DNA from: Rickettsiales bacterium | GTDB taxonomy: Bacteria; Pseudomonadota; Alphaproteobacteria; Rickettsiales; JAJNBL01 | Reading direction: 5' to 3' | DNA length: 64,000 nucleotides | NCBI GenBank assembly: GCA_021156175.1 | Contig: JAJNBL010000003.1 | Coordinates: forward strand, 115,897-179,896 | Shown: positions 6,358-62,363 of the stretch, in pieces | Layout of the letters: each line of letters opens with the position of its first letter | Position numbering within the stretch: position 1 is the first letter of the stretch | Made by a program: the position numbers and the translations under genes | The notes under the pieces: generated by a model | Database searches by the model: none | Told to the model about the DNA's origin: nothing | Seen by the model: the letters and a program-made list of their open reading frames with translations, nothing else

Positions 6358-6371
6358 AAAAACTCCTTTTA

Positions 6372-15765: not shown

Positions 15766-15850
15766 AGCGTGTGGTCATCGGCTGTCAGGTTACCGCCGTT
15801 ACTCTATAAGGAAAAGCAGGAAACAGCAATGGGTTTGGTTTTGCTTTTTT

Positions 15851-16582
15851 TTAGGGCTTATTGATAATGACATTCCAGAGGCCATTAAGATATAAACCGC
15901 GTGCGAGGAGTTTACGCGCAACCATGAGTGTGATCATGAAGGTATCCCAAGCGGGGCGATAATAGCTTCGGCGTTGGATAACTTCTTTATAAAGTGCGCG
16001 AATTGGAATATTGACGACGCGGACTCCTTTCTTCGCTGCTTCAATCAGGATTTCACTTTCAAATACAAAGCCTTCATGTGGTTTTGCTGTGAGGTGAATT
16101 TGGCGCATCAATGTTGCTGGATAAAGTCGGAAGCCGCATTGGCTATCTTTAATGCGATAACCCGACGCCCAGGAGATCCAGAAATTCGCCATACGGTTCG
16201 CAAAGAGCCTGAGCGGTGGAATTTTTGTTACATCGTGAAGGCGTGAGCCAATAATGATATGATTCGGGTAGGTTTTTGCTTTTTCAAGGAAAAGTGGAAT
16301 ATCTTCTGGCCGGTGTTGTCCGTCAGCATCAAGCGTAATGATCGCTTCCGCTCCTTCGCGAAGTGCGTAATCTATGCCTTTGAGTAAGCTCGCGGCTTTG
16401 CCTTGATTCGGATGGTTATGCAGGACTTTTACATGCAAATCAACGAGCAATTGGGCCGTGTTATCCGTTGATCCATCATCTACGATAATGGTTTTAAGTG
16501 ATTGTTTTAATGCTGATTCAACAATTTCTCGGATGGTCGCTTCTTCATTGTAAGCAGGGATGACAACAATAACGCGTTCCAT
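15851..16582 (-). CDS. family 2 glycosyltransferase (polyprenyl-phosphate GT-like)
   Basis: VVIPAYNEEATI, DDGSTDNT, LDADGQH (DxD) and QCGFRLY. The start overlaps the upstream radical SAM stop. Confidence 0.85.
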   Translation of the reverse strand: MERVIVVIPAYNEEATIREIVESALKQSLKTIIVDDGSTDNTAQLLVDLHVKVLHNHPNQGKAASLLKGIDYALREGAEAIITLDADGQHRPEDIPLFLEKAKTYPNHIIIGSRLHDVTKIPPLRLFANRMANFWISWASGYRIKDSQCGFRLYPATLMRQIHLTAKPHEGFVFESEILIEAAKKGVRVVNIPIRALYKEVIQRRSYYRPAWDTFMITLMVARKLLARGLYLNGLWNVIINKP

Positions 16583-17556
16583 TATTTCGCTTCCATTTGT
16601 GCATGGGCAATCATCGCCCTTGTTTGTTCTAATTTTACAATATGACGCTCAGCATCGTAAATAACATAATCATGTGTATGGACTTCCGGGGTGTAATTCA
16701 CTGTCATAATATTCGCGCCTGCTTGCAAGCCCAAATATTGTCCGTAATTGAGGAAGGGCGATGCGGTTTGATCGACGAGGAGATTCAGCGCGCTAACGGA
16801 AGGCATTAGAAGATCGGGATACCTTAGTCGAATCTGTGCCATAATTCTTAATGTATCCACTAGTTCCGCTTTCCGCTCAGCCTTGAGTGGTGCTTGGGTA
16901 TTGGGGATAAAGGGGCTCACACTTGCGGCAAAAAGTGGGAGTTCTCCTAGCAAGGCAATGTCACGTTCGGTATCGGATTCATCCGTTCCCGGTAATCCAT
17001 AAATGAAGCCGGAACTAACTTCGTAACCGATTGCATCCAATTCTTCGATAAGTTTCAGGCGGTCAGCAAGCGTATTGTGCGGACGAAGGTTTTTATAGAG
17101 ATCCGCGTTGCTTGTTTCAAATTTTACAATGGCTTGGGTGGCGCCTGCGTTATAAAGATCGCGGTAGTGTTCAAGCGGGATGTCACCGATCACCAGTAAT
17201 ACGGTTCGGTCTAATTTTTCCCTTATAATTGAGACACTTTTACATAGATCATTAAAGTCATACTTTAAGTGATCCGCGGCTTGTAAGGAGACGACCGGAA
17301 TGTCATCTTTGGTAATGGTTTCGGAGATGCTTACAATTGCATCAGAATTAAGTTCGTAACGCGTTAACTCGTGGTTCAGCGCACGGATGCCGCAATAAGT
17401 ACAATTTCGATAACAGCGATTGGTATACTCAATCACTCCGCGCATATGGACGTGCTTCCCTAATCGCCGGTCGCGCAAACTCGCGGCTTCAGCAAAGAGC
17501 TTCGTATCCTCCGCAGAGAAAAGCGGAGCGTTAACGGGGAAGGGTGATGAAGTCAT
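16582..17556 (-). CDS. radical SAM protein, HydE/BioB/PylB-like subgroup
   Basis: CxxxCxxC cluster motif TNRCYRNCTYCGIR, very close to the HydE-type pattern (N.C.NNC.YCG.R). The TIM-barrel length is 324 aa. Confidence 0.8.
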   Translation of the reverse strand: MTSSPFPVNAPLFSAEDTKLFAEAASLRDRRLGKHVHMRGVIEYTNRCYRNCTYCGIRALNHELTRYELNSDAIVSISETITKDDIPVVSLQAADHLKYDFNDLCKSVSIIREKLDRTVLLVIGDIPLEHYRDLYNAGATQAIVKFETSNADLYKNLRPHNTLADRLKLIEELDAIGYEVSSGFIYGLPGTDESDTERDIALLGELPLFAASVSPFIPNTQAPLKAERKAELVDTLRIMAQIRLRYPDLLMPSVSALNLLVDQTASPFLNYGQYLGLQAGANIMTVNYTPEVHTHDYVIYDAERHIVKLEQTRAMIAHAQMEAK

Positions 17557-17564
17557 GGAACGCC

Positions 17565-18299
17565 TTACCGGACGCCTTCATATTCACTGAAAATGCCAAG
17601 CTGGACGCGGAGCTTAACATTTGTAAAACCTACCTTTTCCAGAAGCGCTGTCACGGTCTCAGATGGTACCATATTATCCATTGTTTCCCAATAATAGGCC
17701 ATCAGATAGCGCGCAGGTTCGCTGCCGGTAAAGATTTTTGTGAAGAAGGGGAGAATATGTTTAAAGTAGAGTTTCATGAAGATGTAGCCGACTTTACTTT
17801 TTGGCGTAGTTACATCTAATATCAATACTTTACCGCCTGATTTTAATGCGCGGTGATATTCACGGAACGCACCTTCTAAATCCTCCACATGGCGGAGCGC
17901 AAAGCCCATCGTGAGAAAATCATAGGCGTTGCTTTCCACGGGCATATCATTCGCAGTGGCTTGTATGTGCTTGCACTTTAATAGTTTTTCGGATTCCGCG
18001 ATCATCCCAGCACTTGGCTCTAAGCAGGTGATGAGTGAGGTATCTTGCACGATATCATGAATCGCGCGCGCGGTCGGGCCCGTGCCGGAAGCGACATCCA
18101 GCACCTTCATGCCAGGCGTTAGGCCGGCACGTTTCAGCGCTTCTTTCCGGTACCATTGGCCAGAACCAAACCAACCCCATTTCGCAATCCCTTCATAGTA
18201 AGGAGCGGCTTCGTCGAAAACTTTGCGCAAAAATGGCTGTTTTGCATCTTTTTCAGCGTAATGGGCAGCGAGTACGGGATGTGGTTCCATGTCCTTCAA
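17565..18299 (-). CDS. class I SAM-dependent methyltransferase, UbiE/COQ5-like
   Basis: SAM motif I VLDVASGTGPTA, a post-I acidic residue, and motif II/III region GGKVLILD. The N-terminal YY..IAKW.. region resembles the UbiE family. Confidence 0.8.
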   Translation of the reverse strand: MKDMEPHPVLAAHYAEKDAKQPFLRKVFDEAAPYYEGIAKWGWFGSGQWYRKEALKRAGLTPGMKVLDVASGTGPTARAIHDIVQDTSLITCLEPSAGMIAESEKLLKCKHIQATANDMPVESNAYDFLTMGFALRHVEDLEGAFREYHRALKSGGKVLILDVTTPKSKVGYIFMKLYFKHILPFFTKIFTGSEPARYLMAYYWETMDNMVPSETVTALLEKVGFTNVKLRVQLGIFSEYEGVR

Positions 18300-18452
18300 A
18301 TCCTTTCATTTTTGGGTGAAATTCAGGCGGGCACTTTAGCATATTGAGGTATAGAGTGAAAGGGGAATATGCGCGGATTTTCCTTGTGGCGCTTGACCGT
18401 GAGAATATTTGGTACTACAACAGGTTACCTTGACTTTAATCAATAGGCAATT

Positions 18453-18911
18453 ATGGGACACGAAACACATATCACACAATTAGGCCAACAGACGCCACTG
18501 CCGAATTCTCCAGAGGAAGCGGTGTTGGAGGCGATCCCGAATCCGCATCCAGGGACGAATTATGTGGTGCGTTTTACCTGCCCGGAATTTACCTCGATTT
18601 GTCCTGTCACCGGCCAGCCGGATTTTGCGCATATCGTGATTGATTATATTCCGAATAAATTTTTGGTCGAAAGTAAGTCATTAAAGCTGTATCTTGGTTC
18701 TTTCAGAAATCACGGGGCGTTCCATGAAACCTGTACGGTGGATATTGCTAAGCGATTGGAAAAAGAGCTAAAACCGACCTGGTTAAGAATTGCGGGCTAT
18801 TGGTATCCGCGCGGCGGAATCCCGATTGATATTTTCTATCAAACGGGTGCGGCGCCGACAAGTGTTTGGATTCCTGAGACAGGCGTGGCGCCATATCGGG
18901 GCAGGGGATGA
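18453..18911 (+). CDS. queF: NADPH-dependent 7-cyano-7-deazaguanine (preQ0) reductase
   Basis: [27 protein letters not shown] and [20 protein letters not shown] are QueF signature blocks (catalytic Cys and the QueF motif). Confidence 0.92.
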
Positions 18912-18914
18912 GGC

Positions 18915-19343
18915 ATGAAACGCGAGCGCACCTATTTGGGTAAAAGTGAATTTTCGGCGGTCACGCGGGATATTGAAGTTTTTGTATTTTCAGAGTTTTT
19001 ATCCGCGAAGTCGGTGCCAGAAGAACATTATTATGTCTGGAGTTACCATATCGAGATTAAAAATCTCGGGAATCATACCGTTCAACTTCTTAATCGCTAT
19101 TGGAAGATCATTGATGCCAAGGGGCGGGTTCAAGAGGTTGTGGGGGCAGGGGTTGTTGGAAAACAGCCGCTAATTGCTCCCGGTGCGAAATTTGAATATC
19201 AAAGCGGAACGCAGCTCAATACACCGTCGGGCGTGATGCTCGGATGTTATGAAATGGGAATGAAAGGAAGTGCGGAGACATTTGGCGTCTCGATTCCAGC
19301 ATTTTCGTTGGATAGTCCGCATGAGAAGGGTGTGTTGAATTAA
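18915..19343 (+). CDS. apaG: ApaG (DUF525) protein
   Basis: YVWSYHIEIKNLGNHTVQLLNRYWKIIDAKGRVQEVVGAGVVGKQPLIAPGAKFEYQSG...G.M.G.Y.M matches the ApaG fold sequence pattern. Confidence 0.9.
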   Translation: MKRERTYLGKSEFSAVTRDIEVFVFSEFLSAKSVPEEHYYVWSYHIEIKNLGNHTVQLLNRYWKIIDAKGRVQEVVGAGVVGKQPLIAPGAKFEYQSGTQLNTPSGVMLGCYEMGMKGSAETFGVSIPAFSLDSPHEKGVLN

Positions 19344-19453
19344 TTCTTTTACTACTTAAAATTCCAAATAAATCATTTAATTACAGTTTGTTATTTCTTT
19401 TTCTGGTGCTTTATGATAGGTTAATCTTCTAAATTTTTAAAGAAGATATATTT

Positions 19454-20212
19454 ATGAAGCAAGGTTCAGAGAATAAAAAGGAATTACCCAAAAGACTAGG
19501 TGGCGATAGTAGCAAAGGTCGCGTAACGTGGTATAAGGCTCGTCAGGAAGATCAAGAATTTGATTATTTAGGGCTTAGCACATGGGACAGGTTGGCACTT
19601 GCTTTTGTGTTCGATAAAAGCTGCTCGGCTAAACATAAAAAGGCTTTAAGTAACGCTTTTAAGGAACTCTATCAAATTCCTGCGAACCGCCCAATAATGG
19701 ATATCGCTTCTCAACTGATTTTAGATAAAAAAGTCCCTCTTCTTTTGCAAGCAACGGCAGGCACTAACCTTGCTTTATTGGGGGAGGCTGACGCAGTAGG
19801 AGACGCTGCTCATGACCGAGTAATTCGGGTTGCTATAAATCTAAAAGATGTTAAACAGCTAAAGGGGACGCTTATCCACGAACTAACGCATATTGTATCG
19901 AATGAACTGTATGGTAATGAATACAAGCCTTACAAAGAGGGAAAGAAAAGAGAATACAAGAAAGCTGTAAAAGCCTCTATTCCTGGTGAAGTTTCTGCAC
20001 TAACGAAACAAGAGCCGTACGCAGTCATGGAAATGCTTCAGCCTCATTGCCATGAAATATATACCAAGCATTGGGAAAACGCCTGGAAATTCGAACGGGT
20101 CGTAAGAATTCCCCAACTTTTTTCAACTACTGACCCACACGGGCAAGTGCTTCACCGCCTTTACCCGGAAGATACCATCAAAAATTCCTTGATAAATGCC
20201 GTGATTATTTAG
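19454..20212 (+). CDS. hypothetical protein with HExxH zinc-metallopeptidase motif (5' portion of a probably frameshifted gene)
   Basis: 252-aa ORF containing GTLIHELTHIVSNELYG (HExxH). The adjacent reading frame is open from 20134 onward (see next feature). Confidence 0.6.
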   Translation: MKQGSENKKELPKRLGGDSSKGRVTWYKARQEDQEFDYLGLSTWDRLALAFVFDKSCSAKHKKALSNAFKELYQIPANRPIMDIASQLILDKKVPLLLQATAGTNLALLGEADAVGDAAHDRVIRVAINLKDVKQLKGTLIHELTHIVSNELYGNEYKPYKEGKKREYKKAVKASIPGEVSALTKQEPYAVMEMLQPHCHEIYTKHWENAWKFERVVRIPQLFSTTDPHGQVLHRLYPEDTIKNSLINAVII

Positions 20213-20733
20213 GGCAAGATCCTAAAGAATATAAATATTTTGGTCCAAAAGATAGTAAGCCTATTCACGAAACGGTAACCGTTGAAACGTTAGCGCAATC
20301 TATCCTGTGGCGAGCAGAGTATCAGGCTTTAGGTAGTCTCCGGATTGCTTTTAAGAAGGAGGATGAGGATAATTTAAAAGTTGAAAAAGATACGCTCCAA
20401 AATCTTTTGAAAACTCGTGGGTTAAGCGATCAAAAAGTTCAAAAACTTTTTGATCGAGGGGAGCGGGGACGAAAAAACCTTGAAAATTTCTGCAATAAAT
20501 GGGGTAGTAAGTACTACGTAAATAATTTTGAGCGGTATAAAGAAGGGGGGCGCACTTTATTCCGTTATGCCCCTAGCAAATTAGCGCAGATGGAGATAGA
20601 TTCAAAGAAAGCTGCTGATGACAATTTCGTATTGAAAATCTTGGCAGAGCGTGCTCGGGCTTCGGAGTCTTCTGAGTCTTCTCACCTTTCGAGGGCAGAG
20701 GAATCTTCTTCTAGTTCTAGGGAGCGATATTAA
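20134..20733 (+). pseudogene. 3' portion of the HExxH gene in a different frame (frameshift or split gene)
   Basis: This frame is stop-free from 20134 to the TAA at 20731-20733. It overlaps the last 79 nt of the 19454 ORF. It has no ATG, and its only possible start is a TTG at 20407 (the track ORF). Hand translation reads ...YHQKFLDKCRDYLGQDPKEYKYFGPKDSKPIHETV... and continues into the 108-aa track ORF. Confidence 0.5.
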
Positions 20734-21451
20734 AACTGTCTGCGTGTTTTTGTTCCTAATTTTCGATTATTTCCGATAAAAATCTGCTGTAGGAGTCTAT
20801 ATATAACGTACGGCACAAGAAAAATCGGGCTTATCACGATACAAATCAAGCCAAAAAGATAGTTCATAGCAGTGGAGCCTCCTGCTGTTTTCAAAGTGGA
20901 GATAGGAATTCTTCACCGTAGAATCCCTATCCCAAAAGAAATACTACCATAACGATAGTATAAATCAATATACAAAAAACTATTGGTTGTGTTGCTTCTG
21001 ATAAATTACCATGTTAGTTCATCTTGAGATAGGGAGGGGCTGGTCGGATGGCGCGGTTAGGTAATCTAAAGGCATTGGGAATATTGCCAGAATAATGGGC
21101 GTGTTTGTGACTAGTACGACGCATCAAGGGGAGCGTGACTCGGTTTATGCTCTTTAGAGGTTTCCGCAATATGTTTATGAAGTAAAGCAAGGAGTCAGGC
21201 CCTACAGAAAGAAGGTTGGTGTATCCTTCCCTCGTGATTCAAATAACTATAATAATAATTATGGAAAATACTTTATAAGGATGCCGGAATTGACGGGAAT
21301 TTGATGCCGCACATCATGATTCCACTCCTAATCGATGTTTGGGACGCCTTTATGCGCTGGGATTCATTGGATTATGGAATTGGCGCTTAACGCTTCCCGC
21401 CTGATGGAAAACGTTACTCTGTACATTCTTCTCTCACAAGATTTTGTTTTA

Positions 21452-23083
21452 TTAAGAGGTCTCGCGGGATTTTCTCACCTCACATACCATTTTCGCGCAA
21501 ATTTCTCCGTTTACAAGGATTTCTGCGCTGATGGTATGTGTGTTTAGATCAGAAAATGTGATCTGAAATGGCTGCTCTGGCTTCAAAACAGAGAGGAATT
21601 TTGCAGAAATAATCCGTGTAAGCGTGTGTCCGTGCTGTGCGAGGCTATCCTCTAACTTTGCCAGCAAAAGCACGCCTGGGACAATTGGATTTCCCGGGAA
21701 ATGGCCAGAAAAAGCTGGGTGATCTTTTGGGAAAGCATATTCGGACTTATCGGATACAAGGAGCTCGTTCAGTGCGTCTTTGGAGATTTTTCCTGTGGGT
21801 AAGCGCGGAAGTTCGGTGACCGCAAGAATTTTGCGTGGAAGGAAAACCGGGTCAATATACTGCGCAAGATTTTTTAGGAATTCCTCTTTATCAAAGGCTT
21901 CTATGTTTTTATCCCTGGGTACGACAATCGCCGTCAGCCGTTCTACGTGGGCAGAGCTCTCAGGGATAAACAGTGCACCGTCTTCGATTCCGGGCATTTT
22001 CCTGAGGATAGTTTGCAGGCCTTGGAGTGATGCGCGTTTGCCGGCGACATTCAGCATGTCGCTTTGCCGGCCTTCTAGCGTAAATGTGCCGTCACTTGCT
22101 AGATTTAGCACATCTCCAAGCGTAATCGCTTCAGGAAGATGCGGAGCAGAAATGTAAGATTCTTCATTCGTTTGCGAAAAAGAAAAGCTTTCATAGGGGC
22201 GCCAACGGTCCCTCCCCCCTTCCCCGGTTGTTCGCCGTGAAGCCATGGAGCCAGCTTCTGTGCATCCATATATCTCAAAGACTTGTGTATTATACTTCAT
22301 CTCGAATGCGAGAGCTGTTTCCGGTGAAAGTGGGGCGGTTGCGGAGATCACTTGCTTGAGTGGTGGGAGTGCAATATTGCTTTTCAGGAAATTTTCCAAA
22401 TGGAGCGGTGTCGTCACCAATGTAAGTCTTGATTCAGGATTACTTTCAAGCGCTTTTCGGAACGCTTCTTCAAGATCGGCGGGATAAAATGGCATTGTGT
22501 TATAGCAGGAAGCAAAGCCCATCATGGGAAGCATAATGGTGGTCTCTAGCCCATACATATGCTGGTGTGGCACGGTTGCAACAATCACATCGTTGTGAGA
22601 GGTAAAACCGAAACGTTTGGCGGCAAGCTCCGCGCCAATTCTCAGCATTCCATAGGTCTTTGTATGGGGAGTAGGATTTCCGGTGCTGCCCGAAGTAAAG
22701 GCAATGACGGCGGGATGTGCATCATCAATTGGGGCGATAGTATGAGAGAGGTTATGTTTAAAATTATACGGCAAAAGGCAGTGACAATAAATTGAATTAT
22801 AATGAGAATCTTCGTTATCGGTGAGGATGTAGCTATCGGGATAGTTCTTGTATATTTGCTCTAATGTTTTTGGGCTGCTATTGGGTGGCAAAAGATGTGT
22901 CTGTCCCTTCTGCCATGCGGCTTCCAGGGCCAGCATAAAATTATAACGGTGGGTGCAGAGATTGATCACAAAGCGCGCATTTGGAAGGTGGGCTGCCTGA
23001 AATTCCATGTCTTCTAGATAATCATCGCGGGTACGTATCCCCTCTTTCGTAATGCAGAGCGTGTCAGATGACGCGGTAATCAT
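21452..23083 (-). CDS. acyl/aryl-AMP ligase (adenylate-forming enzyme) fused to a C-terminal FabZ/FabA-like hot-dog dehydratase domain
   Basis: ANL core motifs are FTSGSTGNPTPHTKTY, EIYGCTEAG and LPRLPTGKISK. The C-terminal ~110 aa carry HPAFSGHFPGNPIVPGVLLL (FabZ-type catalytic His motif). I prefer the ATG at 23083 (GGGGAG 7 nt upstream) over the track start at 23164. Confidence 0.8.
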   Translation of the reverse strand: MITASSDTLCITKEGIRTRDDYLEDMEFQAAHLPNARFVINLCTHRYNFMLALEAAWQKGQTHLLPPNSSPKTLEQIYKNYPDSYILTDNEDSHYNSIYCHCLLPYNFKHNLSHTIAPIDDAHPAVIAFTSGSTGNPTPHTKTYGMLRIGAELAAKRFGFTSHNDVIVATVPHQHMYGLETTIMLPMMGFASCYNTMPFYPADLEEAFRKALESNPESRLTLVTTPLHLENFLKSNIALPPLKQVISATAPLSPETALAFEMKYNTQVFEIYGCTEAGSMASRRTTGEGGRDRWRPYESFSFSQTNEESYISAPHLPEAITLGDVLNLASDGTFTLEGRQSDMLNVAGKRASLQGLQTILRKMPGIEDGALFIPESSAHVERLTAIVVPRDKNIEAFDKEEFLKNLAQYIDPVFLPRKILAVTELPRLPTGKISKDALNELLVSDKSEYAFPKDHPAFSGHFPGNPIVPGVLLLAKLEDSLAQHGHTLTRIISAKFLSVLKPEQPFQITFSDLNTHTISAEILVNGEICAKMVCEVRKSRETS

Positions 23084-23699
23084 ACGGCACCTCCCCGATT
23101 TTCGTGTTAAGCCAAATGCCCGGATGGGTGCAAAGAATGCGCAACGTTTTTCCTGGAGATTCATTCACTTTATAGCATAATGCACTGAAAAAATGAGAAA
23201 TAATAAAGACAGAAATCAGAATGCTCGGGGCAATGATATTTGAGAAGGTTGACCACCCTGCTATGTCGTCGCGTGCTGCCAAATAAATCGAGCCGATTGC
23301 ACATCCAGAGCACAAAAACGTCCATAAAATTGTTTGATAACGGGTGTAGCGCAAAAACGGCGGCTGTAATGGGGATGAGGTATGGACGAGATAGGAAAAA
23401 TGCGTCACAAGTGGCACATGGCCTGGAAGTAAGGTCCGGAAAAATAATCCGGCGGTTACCAAATTAATCGCAATCGGCGGGAAATAGATAACGTAATGGG
23501 TTATGCGTGGCCAGGTGGATGCGACTATTTCTCCGGCGGTAATGGTTAGGAGTGCGATTGCAGAAAATGCGAGTACCTTAGGAGCGATCATTTTGATTTT
23601 ACGACATATTATAGGAGTCGCGGCTGTTCCGACTAAGATATAAAGAATCGCTCGGAAAGCAAGATTAGGATAACCCTCGATGATTGCCACATGGAGCAA
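23064..23699 (-). CDS. integral membrane protein (about 6 TM), unknown function
   Basis: Hydrophobic throughout (IALLTITAGEIVASTW, YVIYFPPIAINLVTAGLFF, ILWTFLCSGCAIGSIYL, IIAPSILISVFIISHFF). It overlaps the ligase start by 20 nt. The start is uncertain, with an internal ATG at 23591. Confidence 0.6.
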   Translation of the reverse strand: MLHVAIIEGYPNLAFRAILYILVGTAATPIICRKIKMIAPKVLAFSAIALLTITAGEIVASTWPRITHYVIYFPPIAINLVTAGLFFRTLLPGHVPLVTHFSYLVHTSSPLQPPFLRYTRYQTILWTFLCSGCAIGSIYLAARDDIAGWSTFSNIIAPSILISVFIISHFFSALCYKVNESPGKTLRILCTHPGIWLNTKIGEVPYDYRVI

Positions 23700-23747
23700 T
23701 ATAAAAGACGCAATGAAGAGAGTGACCCGAAAAAGTAGTATTTTTTG

Positions 23748-24014
23748 CTACTCCTGATGCTCTTCGATATAAGCTGCCAATGCGCCAAGGGATGCAAAAA
23801 TTTCTTTTGTTTTTTCGTCATCGGAACGGATTTTAATGCCATATTTTTTGGAAATGGCAAGCGCAAGCTCCAGCGCATCAATCGAATCAAGCCCTACCCC
23901 ATCGTAAAATAACGCCATATCGGAGGTAATGTCCTCGGGCGCAATATCTTCCAGAAACAGTGTTTCGGTGATCAGTGTTGCGATTTCTAATTCAAATGCG
24001 GTTTGTTCAGTCAT
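23748..24014 (-). CDS. acyl carrier protein
   Basis: 88 aa and acidic, with the phosphopantetheine attachment motif GLDSIDALELALAI. Confidence 0.85.
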   Translation of the reverse strand: MTEQTAFELEIATLITETLFLEDIAPEDITSDMALFYDGVGLDSIDALELALAISKKYGIKIRSDDEKTKEIFASLGALAAYIEEHQE

Positions 24015-24058
24015 GTGTTTTAGAATGCTCCTTTCTTATTACTATTATGTTTTTTGCT

Positions 24059-24192
24059 GTCATCATCGCGAGGAACGAAGCGCGATCCAGCCCAAAAACA
24101 AAAAATTATCCTTATTTAAGTAAAGGGATCTGGATTGCTTCGTTAGGCTATCGCCTTCCTCGCAATAACGACCTCTCGTGAGTGTTCTACCT
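24059..24192. repeat. palindromic MITE/REP-like element, family 1 (GTCAT..GCGAGG...GCAATCCAG arms) with shared tail
   Basis: The left arm is GTCATCATCGCGAGGAACGAAGCGCGATCCAGC (24059-24091). The right arm is CTGGATTGCTTCG...CCTCGCAATAACGAC (24130-24172). The tail is CTCTCGTGAGTGTTCTACCT. Related copies lie at 42262-42366. The same tail recurs at 42295-42315 and 55875-55899. Confidence 0.7.
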
Positions 24193-24198
24193 TTTTCC

Positions 24199-25443
24199 TT
24201 AAACGCCAAGCCGCTTTTTCATAGTATAAATGCCCTTAAATAGCAACAACGGCCAAGAGAGCGAAAATTTTTCACGGAAATCACCTGCGAGCAATGAAAT
24301 CACGGCATTTTCGAGTTTGAGGATATTACGCGGATGGACCATCATATCGCGGAAAACCGGGCAGTTGATGTGGTAAATAAACCAGGAAACCCGTTTCATT
24401 GTGCGGTCAGTTTCGTTTCGGAAAGCGGCAAAGACCCGTTCGCGCTTTTGGGGATGCTGTAACGCAGTATGGATAAGCTCGGAAGCTTTGGTTCCGGAGG
24501 TCATCGCAAAGAGCACGCCGGTCGAGAAAACGGGGTCAATAAACCCAAAGGCATCGCCGATCATCATGTAATTCTTGCCGTACATCTCTTTGGAAAAGTA
24601 GGAAAAATTGCCGGTTGCTTGCACCTCACCAACGCCTTTGGCATGCTCCATCCGTTCCCAGACTTTTGCGTGGCGCTTGCAGTGATCCCAGAAAAATTCT
24701 TCAAGCGAACCTTTGCGTTCTTTTAAATATTCGGGCGTGGCGACGATCCCGACACTCGTAATGCCGTGCTGCAGCGGGATCATCCACATCCAGCCCTGAT
24801 CGGCCAAATGGACGCGGATATTGCCTTCATCATCGTCTGGCATTTCTTTTAAGCCCGAAAAATGGCCAAAAATTGCTGCGGAATTATTATGCGGATTGCG
24901 AAGTTTGAGTTGCAGTGCACTGGAAAATAACGTATCGCGTCCGGTTGCATCCACGACAAAGCGCGGGGTAAAGTGGTATTTCTCCCCCTGCTCCGATTCG
25001 GCTTCTACCGATTCTACCTGTTGTTTATCCTGGCTAAATTGCACGCGTGTGACTTTCACGCCTTCTAATGTTGTAGCGCCTTGTTTTTGGGCGTGCTTAA
25101 AAAGAAGGTGATCGAATTCAGAGCGTTTGACCTGGTACGCATATCCGTGGTTTTTCTCGAGTGAGCGGTCGAAATAAAAGGTATGGGTTTTTTGGTACTC
25201 TTCGGAGATAAAGCTCGCCCCTTTTTTGAGTACACCGATTGCGTGAACATCGTCCAGCACGCCCAGTTTCTCAAAAATTTTGAGGTTCATCGGGAGCAGC
25301 GATTCGCCAATATGGAAGCGCGGATGATGGTCTTTTTCTAGCAAGGTGACGCTGTATCCTTGCTTTACGAGGAGTGCCGCAGCGGTTGAGCCCGCGGGAC
25401 CGCCGCCGATGATGAGGATGTCTGGGGTTAGATGCATAGACAA
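24199..25443 (-). CDS. FAD-dependent halogenase-like oxidoreductase
   Basis: GxGxxG (IIGGGPAGS), HIGESLLP, the WxWxIP motif (GWMWMIPL) and the FxxPxxSxG motif (GFIDPVFSTGV) are all present. This is the signature set of flavin-dependent halogenases. Confidence 0.75.
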   Translation of the reverse strand: MSMHLTPDILIIGGGPAGSTAAALLVKQGYSVTLLEKDHHPRFHIGESLLPMNLKIFEKLGVLDDVHAIGVLKKGASFISEEYQKTHTFYFDRSLEKNHGYAYQVKRSEFDHLLFKHAQKQGATTLEGVKVTRVQFSQDKQQVESVEAESEQGEKYHFTPRFVVDATGRDTLFSSALQLKLRNPHNNSAAIFGHFSGLKEMPDDDEGNIRVHLADQGWMWMIPLQHGITSVGIVATPEYLKERKGSLEEFFWDHCKRHAKVWERMEHAKGVGEVQATGNFSYFSKEMYGKNYMMIGDAFGFIDPVFSTGVLFAMTSGTKASELIHTALQHPQKRERVFAAFRNETDRTMKRVSWFIYHINCPVFRDMMVHPRNILKLENAVISLLAGDFREKFSLSWPLLLFKGIYTMKKRLGV

Positions 25444-25506
25444 AGATCCTAAGAGAATTGGTACTCTATAGTATCTTCCAAAGTTGCCTTAGCAAGTTAT
25501 TTCTCT

Positions 25507-26226
25507 TTAATCCGTCAGGTAAAATATGATGGTGGTAACGACGCGTACGTTTTTTTCGATTTTGTTGGTGTCACCATATTCTTCACCGGCATCAAGGACA
25601 ATGAATCCTCCTTGGGTGGCGCTTCTAATACTGCCGACACGCACCCCTGCATTTTCTGCGAATTCATTCGCTGCAAGACGTGCATTCTGGGTTGCTTCTT
25701 TCAGCATATCGGGCTTGATTTCATTAAGCTTGGTGAAAAAGTAGCGTGGTGGCGCATTTTCTATGTCGATGCCTTCGGCGATCAGCTTATTAATACGCGA
25801 TCTTACTTGGGAAACCAACTCCACTTTATTGGTTTCTACCTCGATGGAGCCCATAAGTTGGTATTTCTCATCTACTAACCTCTGACTTTCGTCACGAAAC
25901 TCTATGTAATTATAATTTATAACACCGGTCGTGATTTCGCTGTCTTCAAAACCGTTTTCTTTTAAGAGATCGATGATGGTTTTTTGGTTTTCTTCGGATT
26001 TTTTATAAAGTGCTGGAATATCTTCGTTTTTTGTCCCGGAAACTCTAAAGATAAGTGTCCAATTGGTGCGGTCAGCCTTTACGCGTCGTTCTGCCAGGCC
26101 TTTTACTTCTGCTGTATTAAGCGCCACTTTGGCGTTATAGAGTGTTTGGCTGACGAAATATCCTCCCAGCGCTAATCCTAATGCTAACACGATACTGGAA
26201 CAGAATAGCCAATTTATTTTGTTCAT
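25507..26226 (-). CDS. SIMPL-domain (DUF541/YggE-like) periplasmic protein
   Basis: N-terminal anchor or signal (MNKINWLFCSSIVLALGLALGG). Its size and the blocks ...VKGLAERRVKAD... and ARLAANEFAENAGVRVGSIRSATQG resemble SIMPL family members. Confidence 0.6.
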   Translation of the reverse strand: MNKINWLFCSSIVLALGLALGGYFVSQTLYNAKVALNTAEVKGLAERRVKADRTNWTLIFRVSGTKNEDIPALYKKSEENQKTIIDLLKENGFEDSEITTGVINYNYIEFRDESQRLVDEKYQLMGSIEVETNKVELVSQVRSRINKLIAEGIDIENAPPRYFFTKLNEIKPDMLKEATQNARLAANEFAENAGVRVGSIRSATQGGFIVLDAGEEYGDTNKIEKNVRVVTTIIFYLTD

Positions 26227-26346
26227 AGAGTACTCCTTATTTTTGCGATAGCGCGCGGACTGGAACTAGGATGGATAAGGAGAGAACAAATGTCAATTGT
26301 TGAATAAGAAGAGGGTTTTAGTTTGTCGTTGCCTTAACTATCATAT

Positions 26347-26382
26347 GCTGGCGTGCAAGGCGTAGCCCGTAAGGACGAAGCC
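26347..26382 (-). repeat. tRNA-3'-flanking repeat (family 3), half copy
   Basis: Read on the minus strand directly after the CCA of tRNA-Leu: GGCTTCGTCCTTACGGGCTACGCCTTGCACGCCAGC. It is near-identical to the sequence following tRNA-Arg(CCG) at 32683-32717. Confidence 0.65.
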
Positions 26383-26469
26383 TGGTGCTCTGGAGAAGAC
26401 TCGAACTTCCACGGGATTGCTCCCACTAGCACCTGAAGCTAGCGCGTCTACCAATTCCGCCACCAGAGC
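26383..26469 (-). tRNA. tRNA-Leu (anticodon CAG)
   Basis: The reverse complement folds as acceptor GCTCTGG/CCAGAGC, anticodon arm CTAGC-TTCAGGT-GCTAG, a long variable arm, T-loop TTCGAGT and encoded CCA. Confidence 0.88.
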
Positions 26470-26475
26470 ATAGTA

Positions 26476-26504
26476 GAGCATTTTCCATTTCAGCGAAAAC
26501 ACTC
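26476..26504. repeat. short palindromic element, family 4 (GAGCATTTTCCATTT...GCGAAAACACTC), minimal copy
   Basis: GAGCATTTTC/GAAAACACTC form an imperfect stem. It shares its ends with the copies at 30859-30913 and 61353-61473. Confidence 0.5.
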
Positions 26505-26548
26505 CAAGGTAGACTGAGGGTTATAGCAAGTTTTCAGGAATGCGCTAC

Positions 26549-29350
26549 TTATTTTTTCTTGTTTAACGTCGCATCCCGTTCAGAAATATAGCGCATGATA
26601 GAGCGGTAGTCCGTTTGGCGTTGAAGCCCATCGAAACGTCCTGATATTTTGACTCCAACGGTGAGTTTCGGGCGTAAGTTCGTTGCCCGATCTTCGATTA
26701 AGAAATCAAACTGTCCAACGGTATTAACGACCTTTTGGCGCAAATCCACGGCTCCACCGAAGCTGCCTGAGGACATCGAAGTGGTAATAATCAGCTGAGG
26801 AATTTCCAGAACGCCTTGCTTGATCATAATCGTACCGTCCATGGAATGCACGTCGGTCGTACCTTGGCTTAAGGTCTGGGTGATGAAGTTATTTGCCTCA
26901 GAAGAAGGAACGGAAAGAAATTTTTGGATAAGGGTGTGGAGGTCAAAATTCTCGATTTTTACTCCGCGTGCGGCAAATGCCATGGAACCGTTAAGCTGGT
27001 TGATCCAATCATTCATACTGTTGCCCGATGTCCCGATACTGCCGCTAACGCTCATATAGCCACTCAAATGTTTAAAGAGTGGAGAGTTGGCAACGATTTT
27101 TGGGGTGATGTGTAAGTTGTTCGCACTGAACGTGATACCAAACACCGGGAAACCGGCGGTGCGAAGTGGGCCCGCGAGGGTAAATTCGCCGTCAAATACC
27201 TTACCCTTCCCTTCTTTAATTTGCAGCACGGTATCGGTGATATCGCCCGACAAGGAGAGATCGTTAATCAGGATATCGCCATGTTTGAGTGCATCGATTT
27301 TAACAGTAAACAGGCCTTCATATTGCCCAAGCCAGGATAGATCCATTTTCTCGGTTGGCCATAAAGCCGGGGGAGCAGGAGGCTCGCCTTCTTTCGCCAC
27401 GACCAAAGTCGCGTCAGCGGGTTTTTCAGCGGCTTCTGTTGCGGCGCCAGCTTCATGTTCAAATTTAAAGAAGTCCGTGTTGAGATAACGTGCGTTAAAG
27501 GCCGCGTTGATATGTGGTTCGTTCTCGGTGACATCCAGAATGATATTGCCATCAAAATCCGCAAGATCCGAATGGATACTGATGCGCTCAAGTGCGATGG
27601 TATCATCTGTTGCGGTTCCGATAAATTCCAGATCGCGAATCCGGTTGCCTTCAAACACCAGGAGGTTTGAAGAGATATCGAGGGTAATATCAAAAGGAAG
27701 TGTGCGTAATTTTCTCAGCCATTGATGCGGATCTTCATCGTCTTTTTTCTCTTCTTTATCAGAAGGTTTGATGTATTGATCAAGGTTAAGGTAATCCACA
27801 TCGAGCGCCGCATAAGCAACCGTACGACGGCCAAAGCCGTAGCGTATATCCATATCGCCTTGGACATAAGAGCGATCCACGCGCAGCACGGCATCATAAA
27901 ATTCCACCCGTTGCGGTGCGATTCGCATTTTACCGTCTGCGGAGAAGGTGCCCAATGTTCCTTCGGGAAGTGTTGTGGTGTTAATGTCAAACCAGCGCAA
28001 AAGCTCGCGTGCTTGCTTGCCTTGCACAGTAATTTTCCCATTAAATTCTGGGATGGGGAAACGTTGCGCGGTGGAGCTTGGGTGATACGCCCATTGCTGG
28101 GTCGGTTCATCGCCGGTGCTGATGGTAACATCGCCATCGGGTTGCTGGCGTTGCTGCGAGAATATCCCGGAAAGAGAAATTGTGCTTTCCCCAGGGATTG
28201 TTGCGGTCAGCTGTTCGATTTCCAGTGCTCCTCCCAAGATCTGTCCATCGGCGTGGATATTGCGCGCGTAATCCAAGTTATAGCGCATTTCTTTAATCGC
28301 GAGCTTAAAGGAGATAGAGCTATCAAAAAACGGTACGTCAAACAAGGTGACGGTTTGAGTGACCCCTCTGCGCATCAGCTGATCGAGATCGAGGAAATCC
28401 ACATTGATATCGGCATCGCCCATGAGCTTATGATCGAAGACAAAATTTCCGGTGATAACCGCATTAGCGACTTCCGATTGCAGCGCGACTTTATCAAGCA
28501 CGAGCGTCTTTCCATCGGATTTTAAGCCACCCTGGAAGGTGAATTTCCCTTCTTCTGCGCTTGCATCGGTGGGCTCAGAAGAATAATCCGAGAGCACGGA
28601 GGCGATATCATTTCCTTGTGCGTTGAAACGTATGTCCATAACGGGAAGTTTACCTTCGACGATCCCGCTGACATTGCCTTTGAATGCGAGTTCAAATGCT
28701 TTCGTGCCGATTGTTCCGTCTGCCTTATAAGCGCCCTCACCTTCTTGCTCTAAACGACTTTTGAGGAAATATGTCCGGCTTCCCAAATTAAACTGGCCCT
28801 TAAATGCAAATGGGCCGGTGAGTGAGCTTGCCGAGAAATGTCCTGTGACGTGTTCAAAGCGCCGTACTTTGCCCGAACGCATATCATCATAGGTGATGAT
28901 CGCATGAGCGAGATCCACTTCCGTCCCGCCAAAAGAGCCACCGATGCCCGATCCGTCCGCTTTTTTGAGTGCAGCCCAGTTTTTGGTACCATCTTCCAAC
29001 ACTTCAATATTGATTGACGGGTTATGCAACGTCACTGAAGAAATTGCAACTTTTCCCATCAAAAATGGAATCAGGCTTGCTTTGATTTCGACTGTTGGTG
29101 CGACAATGAGGTCTTGGGTGAAACGATCATCCGGCGCGTGTAAAATGATGTCATGGATAATGATTTTCGGCGTGAAAAACATCGAAGTGGTGACATCGCC
29201 TTGCACCTCAGGCTCTAACCCTGTGGTGTTGCGAATTTCTTCGATGAAACGTGCTTTATAGCCTTCTGCATCGCCAAACATCGGGGCGATATAAATAAAT
29301 CCCCCGGCAGCGAAGCCAAGTACGAGCAGTAGGACGAAAAGTTTTTTCAC
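26549..29350 (-). CDS. AsmA-family protein (large envelope/outer-membrane biogenesis protein)
   Basis: 933 aa. It has a single N-terminal TM (MKKLFVLLLVLGFAAGGFIYIAPMF) followed by a long beta-rich periplasmic region, which is the typical AsmA architecture and N-terminus. Confidence 0.75.
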   Translation of the reverse strand: MKKLFVLLLVLGFAAGGFIYIAPMFGDAEGYKARFIEEIRNTTGLEPEVQGDVTTSMFFTPKIIIHDIILHAPDDRFTQDLIVAPTVEIKASLIPFLMGKVAISSVTLHNPSINIEVLEDGTKNWAALKKADGSGIGGSFGGTEVDLAHAIITYDDMRSGKVRRFEHVTGHFSASSLTGPFAFKGQFNLGSRTYFLKSRLEQEGEGAYKADGTIGTKAFELAFKGNVSGIVEGKLPVMDIRFNAQGNDIASVLSDYSSEPTDASAEEGKFTFQGGLKSDGKTLVLDKVALQSEVANAVITGNFVFDHKLMGDADINVDFLDLDQLMRRGVTQTVTLFDVPFFDSSISFKLAIKEMRYNLDYARNIHADGQILGGALEIEQLTATIPGESTISLSGIFSQQRQQPDGDVTISTGDEPTQQWAYHPSSTAQRFPIPEFNGKITVQGKQARELLRWFDINTTTLPEGTLGTFSADGKMRIAPQRVEFYDAVLRVDRSYVQGDMDIRYGFGRRTVAYAALDVDYLNLDQYIKPSDKEEKKDDEDPHQWLRKLRTLPFDITLDISSNLLVFEGNRIRDLEFIGTATDDTIALERISIHSDLADFDGNIILDVTENEPHINAAFNARYLNTDFFKFEHEAGAATEAAEKPADATLVVAKEGEPPAPPALWPTEKMDLSWLGQYEGLFTVKIDALKHGDILINDLSLSGDITDTVLQIKEGKGKVFDGEFTLAGPLRTAGFPVFGITFSANNLHITPKIVANSPLFKHLSGYMSVSGSIGTSGNSMNDWINQLNGSMAFAARGVKIENFDLHTLIQKFLSVPSSEANNFITQTLSQGTTDVHSMDGTIMIKQGVLEIPQLIITTSMSSGSFGGAVDLRQKVVNTVGQFDFLIEDRATNLRPKLTVGVKISGRFDGLQRQTDYRSIMRYISERDATLNKKK

Positions 29351-55803: not shown

Positions 55804-55899
55804 GTCATTCCCGTGTGGACGGGAATCCATTGCCAAATGTATGTACATTGGATCCCCGCCTTCGCGGAGATGACGACCTCTTTTAGTCGTTCTATACCT
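55804..55899. repeat. palindromic MITE/REP-like element, family 2, with the tail shared with family 1
   Basis: The left arm is GTCATTCCCGTGTGGACGGGAATCCA (55804-55829). The right arm is TGGATCCCCGCCTTCGCGGAGATGAC (55849-55874). The tail is GACCTCTTTTAGTCGTTCTATACCT (55875-55899). The tail overlaps the stop and last codons of the g15-like gene. Confidence 0.75.
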
Positions 55900-60875: not shown

Positions 60876-60881
60876 CCCTCT

Positions 60882-61352: not shown

Positions 61353-61473
61353 AGCATTTTCCATTTAATCGTACGCGGTGTCGTGCATCGGATTCGTCGG
61401 TCCGCACGTAGGTCTACTACGCTTACGGCCCCCTCCCCTTGCACTCCTTGCGTACGATTAAAGCGAGAACGCT
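61353..61473. repeat. palindromic element, family 4, long copy
   Basis: The outer arms are AGCATTTTCCATTTA (61353-61367) and TAAAGCGAGAACGCT (61459-61473). The inner perfect inverted repeat is TTAATCGTACGC (61365-61376) / GCGTACGATTAA (61450-61461). It shares its ends with the copies at 30859-30913 and 26476-26504. Confidence 0.65.
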
Positions 61474-62341: not shown

Positions 62342-62363
62342 CAGGATTCTGGAACCTAAGGCA

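Follow-up and report, generated by a model that had tools for sequence, protein, structure and literature searches.

The window covers 64 kb of a contig that is 394 kb or longer. Four of its genes encode an acyl carrier protein (ACP), a membrane protein, a halogenase-like flavoprotein and a ligase-hot-dog fusion. This raises the question of which pathway such genes serve when no chain-building enzyme is encoded beside them. Their host is an uncultured, poorly sampled alphaproteobacterium in which ankyrin-repeat proteins are abundant. The initial annotation proposed a reduced or novel pathway. We instead favor, at a probability of about 65%, a split cluster: the four genes would be one half of an aryl-polyene (APE) lipid pathway of xanthomonadin/arcuflavin type, the half responsible for priming and for tailoring the head group.

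Gene content and organization of the locus

Four intact open reading frames (ORFs) run from 25443 to 21452 on the minus strand, exactly where four co-oriented genes had first been noted. Transcription proceeds from the flavoprotein through the ACP and membrane protein to the ligase-hot-dog fusion, which is the inverse of the original listing. All of the motifs quoted initially were found in the translations (GHFPGNPIVPGVLLL, GLDSID, GGGPAG, GWMWMIPL, FIDPVFSTG), and the ligase additionally carries FTSGSTG, YGCTEAG and LPTGK. The family calls held for all four proteins as well, namely the adenylating ligase with its fused hot-dog dehydratase, the membrane protein, the ACP and the halogenase-like, flavin-dependent enzyme. 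Judged by sequence comparison, the domain matches of the flavoprotein, ACP, ligase and hot-dog domain are far above chance level. The end of the membrane-protein gene does overlap the ligase start, with 20 nt shared as called. Two related genes 3-6 kb from the four, one for a methyltransferase and one for a GT2 glycosyltransferase, had been overlooked. The neighborhood is rich in ankyrin-repeat and LRR proteins, suggesting a host-associated lifestyle. The features are as follows:

15851..16582, minus strand: GT2 glycosyltransferase of polyprenyl-phosphate-sugar-synthase type, probable pathway member
16582..17556, minus strand: HydE-like radical-SAM enzyme, between the methyltransferase and GT2 genes
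17565..18299, minus strand: UbiE/COQ5-fold SAM methyltransferase, called from 18290 (241 aa)
21452-23164, minus strand: ligase-hot-dog fusion ORF, called as 21452-23083 (543 aa), with a start possible as far upstream as 23164
21452..21748, minus strand: ApeI-like hot-dog (FabA/FabZ-like dehydratase) domain, C-terminal ~98 aa of the fusion
21749..23083, minus strand: ApeH/XanA2/ArcT-type aryl-acid adenylating enzyme (aryl:ACP ligase), N-terminal ~445 aa of the fusion
23064..23699, minus strand: ApeG/ArcU-type small integral membrane protein, called gene 23064-23591 (175 aa)
23748..24014, minus strand: ApeE/XanC-type acyl carrier protein (88 aa), with the phosphopantetheine attachment Ser in GLDSID
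24199..25443, minus strand: flavin-dependent halogenase (FDH) of xanthomonadin/arcuflavin-cluster type (ArcA-like), ORF opening with TTG at 25443, gene call from ATG at 25437 (412 aa)

Putative carrier-loading proteins and their membrane partner

The N-terminal domain of the fusion matched Pfam AMP-binding (E 1e-17). Its identity to E. coli ApeH was 28% (E 5e-25), and to ligases within aryl-polyene loci 33-42%. The possibility of a housekeeping FadD had been raised initially, but the domain grouped with ApeH/ArcT-type ligases, not with FadD. With every FadD, 4-coumarate or benzoate ligase model it scored far under the cut-off. ApeH loads 4-hydroxybenzoate (4-HBA) onto its ACP without CoA (PMC8253772), XanA2 is a 3-HBA:ACP ligase with XanC as its ACP (PMC6859482), and ArcT adenylates 3-HBA. 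By analogy with these three enzymes, the substrate in the window would be a hydroxybenzoate.

The C-terminal domain is PF22818 (ApeI-like) in precomputed annotation, matched FabA at E 2e-4, and was 33% identical to E. coli ApeI. Dozens of metagenomic proteins share this fused architecture (PF00501 plus PF22818, ~525-560 aa). In an alignment of 34 family members, 68 residues of the fusion are invariant, and the window protein keeps all of them, including FTSGSTG, QHMYGLE, YG.TEAG and the A10 Lys in the ligase, as well as His461 of GHFPGNP in the ApeI domain (34/34 homologues). At His+14, the place of the catalytic acid in FabZ/FabA, 28 of the 34 homologues have an acidic residue and the window protein has Ala. 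This counts against the dehydratase step of the split-cluster reading.

The ACP matched Pfam PP-binding (E 1e-8) and NF006617 (115 bits, cut-off 70), with 49% identity to ApeE and 36% to ApeF of E. coli CFT073. ACPs 44-60% identical to it adjoin the halogenase or ligase in 31/83 and 69/80 comparison loci. The membrane protein had neither a Pfam nor an NCBIfam match. A profile built on 21 ORFs that separate the ACP gene from the ligase gene in related loci recognized it as ApeG-type with 77 bits (E 4e-25); the same profile gave 34 bits for E. coli ApeG and below 0 for the controls ApeI and ApeN. A simple hydropathy scan indicated about 4-5 hydrophobic segments, not the six or so transmembrane helices first described.

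A flavoprotein of the halogenase family

The flavoprotein matched Pfam Trp_halogenase (E 2e-38) and FAD_binding_3, and its best solved relatives were the halogenases CndH, 8zop, Mpy16, ChlB4, CmlS and PltA. Profile comparison sided with the halogenase assignment initially suggested, placing solved halogenases at E 1e-86 to 1e-61. An identity of geranylgeranyl-reductase type, at E 1e-11, was rejected on this basis. The catalytic Lys, which remained to be located when the gene was first described, is kept as the invariant K71, aligning with CndH K76 and CmlS K71. In total, the halogenase family has 61 invariant residues, and the flavoprotein keeps every one. The nearest relatives (44-59% identity) lie mostly within xanthomonadin/arcuflavin-type aryl-polyene clusters. 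Among the 54 halogenase-anchored loci with at least 8 kb on both sides, other aryl-polyene genes adjoin 41 of the relatives (44-51% identity), and 37 loci carry a ketosynthase (KS), chain-length factor (CLF), ketoreductase (KR) or ApeP.

Although fold and catalytic residues are those of a halogenase, the activity and its timing would have to follow from them, and it is unlikely, though the strongest of the alternatives, that the pathway is as proposed while the flavoprotein hydroxylates the aryl head group or is silent in vivo. It scored under the cut-off of every curated halogenase model in NCBIfam (197 bits against 900 for CmlS), nearly equaled by the monooxygenase model QhpG (168 bits, cut-off 240). 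Moreover, arcuflavin (C41H52O4) is halogen-free even though its cluster encodes the "halogenase" homologue ArcA (PMC3949708), so halogenation in vivo is not guaranteed. Against this, the catalytic Lys, WxWxIP and FxxPxxSxG are invariant across the family of the flavoprotein, and its ten best solved relatives are halogenases except 3nix, an uncharacterised flavoprotein. Xanthomonadins are brominated, and the halogenase gene present in Xanthomonas clusters is absent from the non-brominating Lysobacter enzymogenes (PMC3691225).

Probable tailoring genes nearby

Both the GT2 protein and the methyltransferase find their best relatives within aryl-polyene loci. The GT2 protein matched Pfam Glycos_transf_2 (E 1e-30) and shared 43-54% full-length identity with GT2 proteins encoded inside nine such loci (L070, L077, L011, L083, L062, L016, L087, L007 and L072). 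Together with 31% identity to the N-terminal portion of E. coli ApeJ, this makes it the probable counterpart of the aryl-polyene-cluster GT2. The methyltransferase aligned from end to end with methyltransferases in aryl-polyene loci at 33-41% identity (E 1e-46 to 1e-57). Such enzymes occur in 17/83 halogenase-anchored loci, often directly adjoining the halogenase or GT2, as in the KR-GT2-MT-FDH arrangement of L077. It scored 131 bits with the UbiE equivalog model, under the cut-off of 216. It is probably a further pathway member and a candidate aryl O-methyltransferase.

The intervening radical-SAM gene is separated from the methyltransferase gene by 8 nt and has one base in common with the GT2 gene. 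Its product scored 174 bits with TIGR03956 HydE, under the cut-off of 254.6, and matched solved HydE structures at E 1e-41. No homologue occurred in 163 aryl-polyene comparison loci, and relatives of at least 47% identity formed only four clusters among 1.84 billion representatives. One relative (37% identity) carries a methyltransferase domain in the same polypeptide. We consider this enzyme a possible pathway member.

Absence of chain-building genes from the inspected 82 kb

We inspected 82 kb of the contig, comprising the window and flanks of ~8.5 kb and ~9.7 kb, by tblastn with xanthomonadin-type and E. coli Ape proteins. As had been stated for the window, no KS, KR or thioesterase was detected in the 64 kb, nor in either flank; CLF, ApeP, LolA, MMPL, LPLAT/acyltransferase and XanB2 were likewise absent from the 82 kb. 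A polyketide synthase block lies within 10 kb in all 13 ligase-anchored loci having at least 8 kb on both sides, and the detachment in the window is therefore atypical.

This absence could be taken to mean that the locus is a self-contained reduced pathway with no dedicated polyketide synthase, passing an aryl acid to the ACP and yielding a halogenated short aryl-acyl unit, which might be transferred onto a polyprenyl-phosphate sugar or lipid by the GT2 or extended by the housekeeping fatty-acid synthase. The gathering of FDH, methyltransferase, GT2 and a lineage-specific radical-SAM gene near the priming genes is consistent with this explanation, and an ApeI domain missing its usual acidic residue would fit a lost dehydratase role. 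However, the domain is otherwise fully conserved, which is hard to explain without elongation cycles, and an off-loading enzyme (LPLAT or thioesterase) is absent nearby. The search covered 82 kb of the contig of at least 394 kb, and split clusters are documented: the arc genes of Azoarcus sp. BH72 occupy two unlinked loci, both essential (PMC3949708). We regard the reduced or novel pathway first proposed as improbable.

Least probable of all is a decaying, productless remnant that lost its elongation and export genes, as the absent partners, the Ala in ApeI and a host-associated lifestyle, where gene loss is common, might suggest, given that all four reading frames are intact at full family length with every ligase-ApeI (68/68) and halogenase (61/61) invariant kept, no pseudogene fragments of KS or KR were detected by tblastn, and a related organism (CarB 83% identical) retains FDH (58%) and ACP (69%) in the same order.

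Comparison with known systems

The link initially drawn to xanthomonadin and aryl-polyene clusters is borne out by the relatives of these genes in such clusters, and the genes proved to be conserved together in many genomes. Two loci (L147 and L154) have the same co-directional order, KR-FDH-ACP-(ApeG)-ApeH. In the related organism, the FDH-ACP-membrane gene order recurs in another genomic neighborhood, which speaks for selection on these genes.

The pig/xan (xanthomonadin) genes of Xanthomonas and the arc (arcuflavin) genes of Azoarcus resemble the window in encoding an ACP of XanC/ArcV type, an aryl:ACP ligase (XanA2/ArcT), a dehydratase (ArcS), a flavoprotein of halogenase-like type (ArcA) and a small hypothetical membrane protein (ArcU), alongside GT2 and methyltransferase genes. 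They differ in that the ligase and ApeI-like dehydratase of the window form one polypeptide, and in that their XanB2 chorismatase, KS/CLF, KR, ApeP, LolA, MMPL and acyltransferase genes are absent from the 82 kb. Conversely, they lack the HydE-like radical-SAM gene. The halogenase gene of the window is co-directional with the ACP-ligase half, whereas that of Azoarcus sits with the KS half and that of Lysobacteraceae is usually divergent from the ACP.

In the ape cluster of E. coli CFT073 and Xenorhabdus doucetiae, the genes for the ACP, membrane protein, ligase and hot-dog protein (apeE/F-G-H-I) are ordered and overlap exactly as in the window. The window ACP most resembles ApeE, the ACP that receives 4-HBA, and the ligase, hot-dog domain and GT2 are homologous to ApeH, ApeI and ApeJ. 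In contrast to the ape cluster, the window has one ACP rather than two, a single ApeH-ApeI polypeptide and a halogenase, which the E. coli cluster lacks, and none of the remaining 11 ape genes is adjacent. Enzyme identities are low (28-33%), and those to characterised proteins in general range from 28% to 49%.

"Variant B" flavin-dependent halogenases work on carrier-bound substrates. The window protein shares with CndH, PltA, Mpy16, ChlB4 and CmlS the fold family, GxGxxG, WxWxIP, FxxPxxSxG and catalytic Lys, adjoins a carrier protein gene, and is short, with no large C-terminal substrate-binding module. Its identity to solved halogenases is low, and its substrate would differ, being hydroxybenzoyl- or aryl-polyenoyl-S-ACP. 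Our literature search found no halogenase characterised on either.

A probable split aryl-polyene pathway

Under the split-cluster reading, the ApeH-type domain would adenylate hydroxybenzoate (3-HBA or 4-HBA) and load the ApeE/XanC-type ACP directly, with no CoA intermediate. The halogenase, using FADH2, O2 and halide, would add bromine or chlorine to the aryl or polyene while it is bound to the carrier. The fused ApeI domain may act as one subunit of an ApeI:ApeP dehydratase in each elongation round, and its retention implies polyene elongation by partners encoded elsewhere. ApeG is a conserved membrane partner. The GT2 would probably help to attach the product to a lipid or sugar, and the methyltransferase to O-methylate the head group. 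We assume that the partners lie elsewhere in the genome, with KS, chain-length factor, ApeP, KR, LolA-like, MMPL and acyltransferase genes most likely at a second, unlinked locus.

Such genes had been thought unexpected in a host-associated alphaproteobacterium. However, aryl-polyene clusters have been described as the most widely distributed BGC family in bacteria and as frequent among host-associated Gram-negatives (PMC8253772), and many Alphaproteobacteria hold close relatives of the flavoprotein. This type of bacterial membrane-pigment pathway is well known rather than new, and the locus is a slightly unusual example of an ordinary system.

A divergent member of the xanthomonadin and aryl-polyene family

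The four genes at 21452-25443 belong to the xanthomonadin/aryl-polyene family as a new and divergent member, instead of forming the novel pathway that the initial annotation had proposed. The locus is mostly a known system, correctly annotated, and had been recognised correctly in outline. All four reading frames are intact, and transcription runs from 25443 down to 21452:

24199-25443, minus strand, flavoprotein of 412/414 aa (Pfam Trp_halogenase, E 2e-38, and FAD_binding_3)
23748-24014, minus strand, acyl carrier protein (ACP) of 88 aa (PP-binding; NF006617, 115 bits against a cut-off of 70)
23064-23699, minus strand, membrane protein of 175/211 aa, between the ACP and ligase genes
21452-23164, minus strand, ligase-hot-dog fusion of 543/570 aa (AMP-binding, E 1e-17, and a hot-dog domain), its start overlapping the end of the membrane-protein gene

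The families claimed for the four genes were borne out by the open reading frames (ORFs), by Pfam and NCBIfam domain calls, and by the quoted motifs in the translations, which together confirm the earlier observation. The genes had been listed in an order opposite to that of transcription, and the second product, described as having about six transmembrane segments, is a membrane protein for which hydropathy suggests 4-5. For the flavoprotein and for the ORF at 515-1393, the called genes begin at ATGs inside the maximal ORFs.

The window follows the apeE-to-apeI gene order of the experimentally studied E. coli CFT073 ape cluster, where overlapping frames (apeE-apeF-apeG-apeH-apeI) encode two ACPs, a membrane protein, an acyl-ACP synthetase and a hot-dog dehydratase. 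ApeH adenylates 4-hydroxybenzoate and loads it onto ACP without a CoA intermediate, with ApeE as the preferred acceptor (PMC8253772). XanA2 is a 3-hydroxybenzoate (3-HBA):ACP ligase with XanC as its ACP (PMC6859482), and Azoarcus ArcT adenylates 3-HBA (PMC3949708).

Two sets of loci were used for comparison. The flavoprotein anchored at least 80 loci at 44-49% identity in a scan of species-representative genomes, none of the matches listed exceeding 48-49%. A metagenome scan with the fusion protein gave 80 ligase-anchored loci at 33-42% identity, and no relative above 42%. Among the matches listed, 54 halogenase-anchored loci (three earlier look-ups included) had at least 8 kb on both sides; 37 carried a ketosynthase (KS), chain-length factor (CLF), ketoreductase (KR) or ApeP gene, and 41 carried some aryl-polyene gene. 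The closest named flavoprotein homologues (46-51% identity) are located in xanthomonadin-type clusters with KS, CLF, ApeP-like dehydratase, KR, XanB2 chorismatase, LolA, MMPL, GT2 glycosyltransferase and acyltransferase genes. Two comparison loci, L147 and L154, have the co-directional order KR-halogenase-ACP-(ApeG)-ApeH, as in the window. Given both surveys and the shared gene order, the four genes constitute one co-conserved sub-module within a known family of clusters, recurring in aryl-polyene loci. The oddities of the window copy are modest: its polyketide synthase (PKS) genes are physically apart, its halogenase gene is co-directional with that of the ACP, its fused ligase-ApeI protein does not have the usual acid, and a HydE-like gene lies nearby.

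Promoters and terminators predicted across 15500-26600 were no more numerous than in shuffled sequence and yielded no usable operon boundaries. Upstream, a SIMPL/DUF541 gene (25507-26226, minus strand) ends 63 nt from the halogenase ORF and 69 nt from its called ATG; together with a tRNA-Leu(CAG) it occupies 25507-26469 (minus strand), between the halogenase gene and a gene for a 933-aa AsmA-family protein. The SIMPL/DUF541 gene was rejected as a fifth member, since neither the 163 comparison loci nor the closest relative has a counterpart.

Flavoprotein

The motifs GGGPAG, GWMWMIP and FIDPVFSTG were found in the flavoprotein translation, and the residues of GxGxxG, WxWxIP and FxxPxxSxG are invariant, as is Lys71, in an alignment of the 39 closest homologues. 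The residues aligned to Lys71 are K76 in CndH (3e1t) and, in the tagged CmlS chain 3i3l, K91, equivalent to native K71. We take CndH Lys76 and CmlS Lys71 to be the catalytic lysines, situated after the first beta-alpha-beta unit. The best solved relatives were ChlB4, Mpy16, 8zop, CndH, PltA, CmlS, RadH, Bmp2 and the uncharacterised flavoprotein 3nix. A search with the single sequence matched them at E 2e-56 to 1e-37, and one with a family profile at about 7e-86 to 1e-60. In the same PDB searches, geranylgeranyl reductase 3oz2 reached only E 1e-11 and aromatic monooxygenases about 1e-6. The concern that the protein might group with geranylgeranyl reductases was thereby answered: halogenases are far closer, and the catalytic lysine is kept. 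Geranylgeranyl reductase, QhpG/LodB-type peptidyl-Trp monooxygenase and UbiH-type hydroxylase models all scored below their cut-offs, and these enzymes were well behind halogenases in the structure searches.

The flavoprotein passed none of the curated NCBIfam halogenase models (CmlS, 197 bits against a cut-off of 900), so it represents a distinct subfamily and not an orthologue of a named enzyme. In a rough neighbour-joining tree, it and its closest homologue branch off together and deeply, and no obvious donor group encloses them. Solitary copies of this subfamily are common, since 13 of the 54 full-flank halogenase-anchored loci (about a quarter, mostly Steroidobacteraceae and Rhodanobacteraceae) have no other aryl-polyene gene within 10 kb; they include L015, L018, L029, L032, L034, L035, L043, L057, L065, L071, L074 and L076.

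Halogenation would be the least certain step of the proposed pathway. Arcuflavin (C41H52O4) is halogen-free although its cluster encodes the homologue ArcA (PMC3949708). Brominating Xanthomonas clusters have a halogenase gene, and the non-brominating cluster of Lysobacter enzymogenes has none (PMC3691225).

Carrier protein, membrane protein and ligase fusion

A dedicated ACP of the ApeE/XanC type lies beside the ligase, with 49% identity to E. coli ApeE, 36% to ApeF, and its attachment serine within GLDSID. The membrane protein had no Pfam match. We therefore built a positional profile from 21 ORFs located between ACP and ligase genes in related loci; with this profile the window protein scored 77 bits, E. 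coli ApeG 34 bits and the controls below 0. An ApeG-type protein thus occupies the expected place between the ACP and ligase genes.

The ligase part is of the ApeH/XanA2 type of aryl-acid:ACP ligase and keeps all family invariants. Its identity is 28% to E. coli ApeH (E 5e-25) and 33-42% to the ligases of 80 aryl-polyene loci. A 34-member fusion alignment has 68 invariant residues, and the window protein keeps them all, among them His461 of GHFPGNP and those of the A3, A5 and A10 motifs. The fusion to an ApeI-like domain recurs at 36-41% identity in dozens of other proteins (PF00501 and PF22818, about 525-560 aa). A housekeeping FadD was dismissed, FadD-type models scoring 55-87 bits against cut-offs of 476-766, and MenE and benzoate-CoA ligase also fell below their NCBIfam cut-offs. 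The 4-coumarate ligase of photoactive yellow protein (TIGR02372) was the top NCBIfam match yet reached 104 bits against 334.7. No close solved structure was found for the ligase, the best being DhbE (E 2.5e-10). The highest-scoring ligase homologues, P0122 and P0123, are 880-889 aa long with AMP-binding domains alone annotated; their scores, about 1.5 times those of the next matches at equal identity, suggest tandem double-ligase proteins.

The hot-dog part is ApeI-like (PF22818 in the precomputed annotation) and 33% identical to E. coli ApeI. The position 14 residues after His461, corresponding to the catalytic acid of FabZ/FabA, is Ala in the window, Asp or Glu in 28 of 34 fusion homologues and Asp in E. 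coli ApeI. The window domain is therefore not a complete FabZ/FabA-type dehydratase, which has both the His and an acid 14 residues downstream. In FabA/FabZ hot-dog dimers, the active-site His and acid come from different subunits. With the His present and the acid absent, the window domain would need an acid-supplying partner such as ApeP.

Missing elongation genes

KS, KR and thioesterase genes had been reported missing from the window, and none was found when xanthomonadin-type and E. coli Ape proteins were searched by tblastn against 82 kb, comprising the window and about 8.5 kb and 9.7 kb of the same contig beyond its two ends. For the KS/CLF pair (ApeO/ApeC; PF00109 and PF13723), there was neither a tblastn match in the 82 kb nor such a Pfam in the precomputed annotation, a result that describes the locus and not the organism. 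At the same locus level, tblastn over the 82 kb found no ApeQ-type KR or ApeP-like second dehydratase; no LolA-like/MMPL export pair or lysophospholipid acyltransferase, with only an ApeJ-like GT2 nearby; no DUF3261, thioesterase or XanB2; and no detectable pseudogene fragments of the missing partners.

Detachment from the PKS block is atypical: the block was present in all 13 ligase-anchored loci having at least 8 kb on both sides, and detached in none. There is precedent for a cluster split between sites, as the arc genes of Azoarcus sp. BH72 lie in two physically unlinked loci that are both required for pigment (PMC3949708). The need for an ApeP-like partner mildly favours a split cluster here as well. 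The alternative is a truly KS-less pathway in this lineage, in which the ApeH-ApeI fusion, ACP, halogenase, ApeG and the nearby methyltransferase, HydE-like radical-SAM and GT2 proteins would make a halogenated, methylated aryl (glyco)lipid head group without a dedicated polyketide synthase. We consider this improbable.

Neighbouring methyltransferase, radical-SAM and glycosyltransferase genes

Three further genes form a tight minus-strand unit at 15851-18299, with queF, apaG and two opposite-strand ORFs between it and the ligase gene:

within 15851-18299, minus strand, UbiE-fold methyltransferase
16582-17556, minus strand, HydE-like radical-SAM protein, packed between the methyltransferase and GT2 genes
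within 15851-18299, minus strand, GT2 of the polyprenyl-phosphate-sugar-synthase type

The methyltransferase is 33-41% identical to methyltransferases in 17 of 83 halogenase-anchored loci, often adjoining the halogenase or GT2 gene. The GT2 protein shares 43-54% identity with GT2 proteins of nine aryl-polyene loci and 31% with the N-terminal part of ApeJ. One comparison locus, L077, has the order KS-CLF-ApeP-KR-GT2-methyltransferase-halogenase-XanB2. By homology, the GT2 and methyltransferase genes probably belong to the same pathway as the four genes.

The radical-SAM protein matches HydE structures at E 1e-41, yet falls below the HydE family cut-off. Its gene has no counterpart in the 163 comparison loci and no visible hydrogenase context, and relatives at 47% identity or above fall in only four clusters among 1.84 billion representatives. 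One relative (P0384, 37% identity) is a radical-SAM-methyltransferase fusion, and another (P0376, 48%) has an uncharacterised 500-aa N-terminal extension. An arsenosugar-type trio was rejected for these genes: GT2 reached only 37 bits on TIGR04283 (cut-off 182), and the HydE-like radical-SAM protein matched none of the arsenosugar radical-SAM models in NCBIfam.

The two ORFs at 19454-20733 (plus strand) point towards the ligase gene and encode 252 and 108 aa. The longer resembles the HEXXH metalloprotease family of Wolbachia WD_0702 only very weakly (E 0.008), and the shorter has a Ser/Glu-rich C-terminus.

Host and genomic context

The organism is uncultured and represented by metagenome sequence; the window takes up positions 26937-90936 of the 393,608-bp JGI contig 3300042904|Ga0456370_0000031. 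The window encodes an alphaproteobacterial-type DnaX, and its best named CarB relatives are metagenome-assembled genomes labelled 'Alphaproteobacteria bacterium' and 'Rickettsiales bacterium' (72-75% identity). The closest relative (CarB, 83%) shares its source sample with the closest flavoprotein homologue. The contig from that sample keeps the halogenase-ACP-membrane protein gene order (58% and 69% identity for halogenase and ACP) in a different neighbourhood, and this conservation speaks for purifying selection acting on the module. The gene neighbourhood of carB in two relatives (CarB 83% and 75%) contained no aryl-polyene genes, so the module is not at a conserved chromosomal position.

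The initial annotation considered such a pathway unexpected in a host-associated alphaproteobacterium. Aryl-polyene clusters have been described as the most widespread family of biosynthetic gene clusters and as frequent in host-associated Gram-negatives (PMC8253772), and relatives of the flavoprotein were found in many Alphaproteobacteria. The presence of the module is not surprising.

Other genes of the region stand out. At least seven ankyrin-repeat proteins are encoded in the 82 kb, in the window at 59736-63671 (plus strand) and in the same-contig stretches beyond the window ends (L169 and L170), along with one leucine-rich-repeat (LRR) protein; this set suggests a eukaryote-associated lifestyle. 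One ankyrin protein weakly matches the Legionella Dot/Icm effector AnkY/LegA9 model. A full-length gene transfer agent (GTA) baseplate 'megatron' gene (55892-59593, minus strand; NF048004, 1170 bits, cut-off 800) has acyltransferase_3, LRR and ankyrin genes as neighbours and no visible GTA head-tail cluster around it. Phage-lysozyme and DUF2793 genes occur 7-9 kb past the window end (L169). An operon-like unit at 4621-9205 (minus strand) encodes three large proteins: one of 590 aa with four FG-GAP repeats, one of 576 aa with an N-terminal prepilin-type methylation motif and a sub-threshold laminin-G-like lectin match, and one of 373 aa with no match. Judging from these features, they may form a pilus-tip or pseudopilin adhesin.

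Proposed pathway and implications

Homologues of these enzymes, whose families, conserved catalytic residues, gene order and co-occurrence we observed directly, suggest how the pathway may proceed. A hydroxybenzoate would be adenylated and loaded onto the ACP. The carrier-bound aryl group, or the later polyene, may be halogenated by the FADH2-dependent enzyme, and the nearby methyltransferase may O-methylate it. A KS/CLF-KR-ApeI:ApeP cycle would extend the chain, its missing members presumably encoded elsewhere, and GT2 would help to attach the product to a lipid or sugar anchor.

Such split loci would be overlooked or wrongly scored under genome-mining rules that demand a KS beside the ligase. 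If the pathway were truly KS-less, it would be a new minimal aryl-polyene offshoot in a probably intracellular alphaproteobacterium. True absence of the elongation genes would mean that the locus defines a minimal aryl-ACP halogenation and glycolipid pathway, and would give the HydE-like radical-SAM protein its first non-hydrogenase context. Aryl-polyene lipids shield Gram-negatives against both light and oxidative stress and influence the formation of biofilms, and the locus described here extends the known range of the pathway to a deep-branching, ankyrin-rich, probably host-associated alphaproteobacterium.
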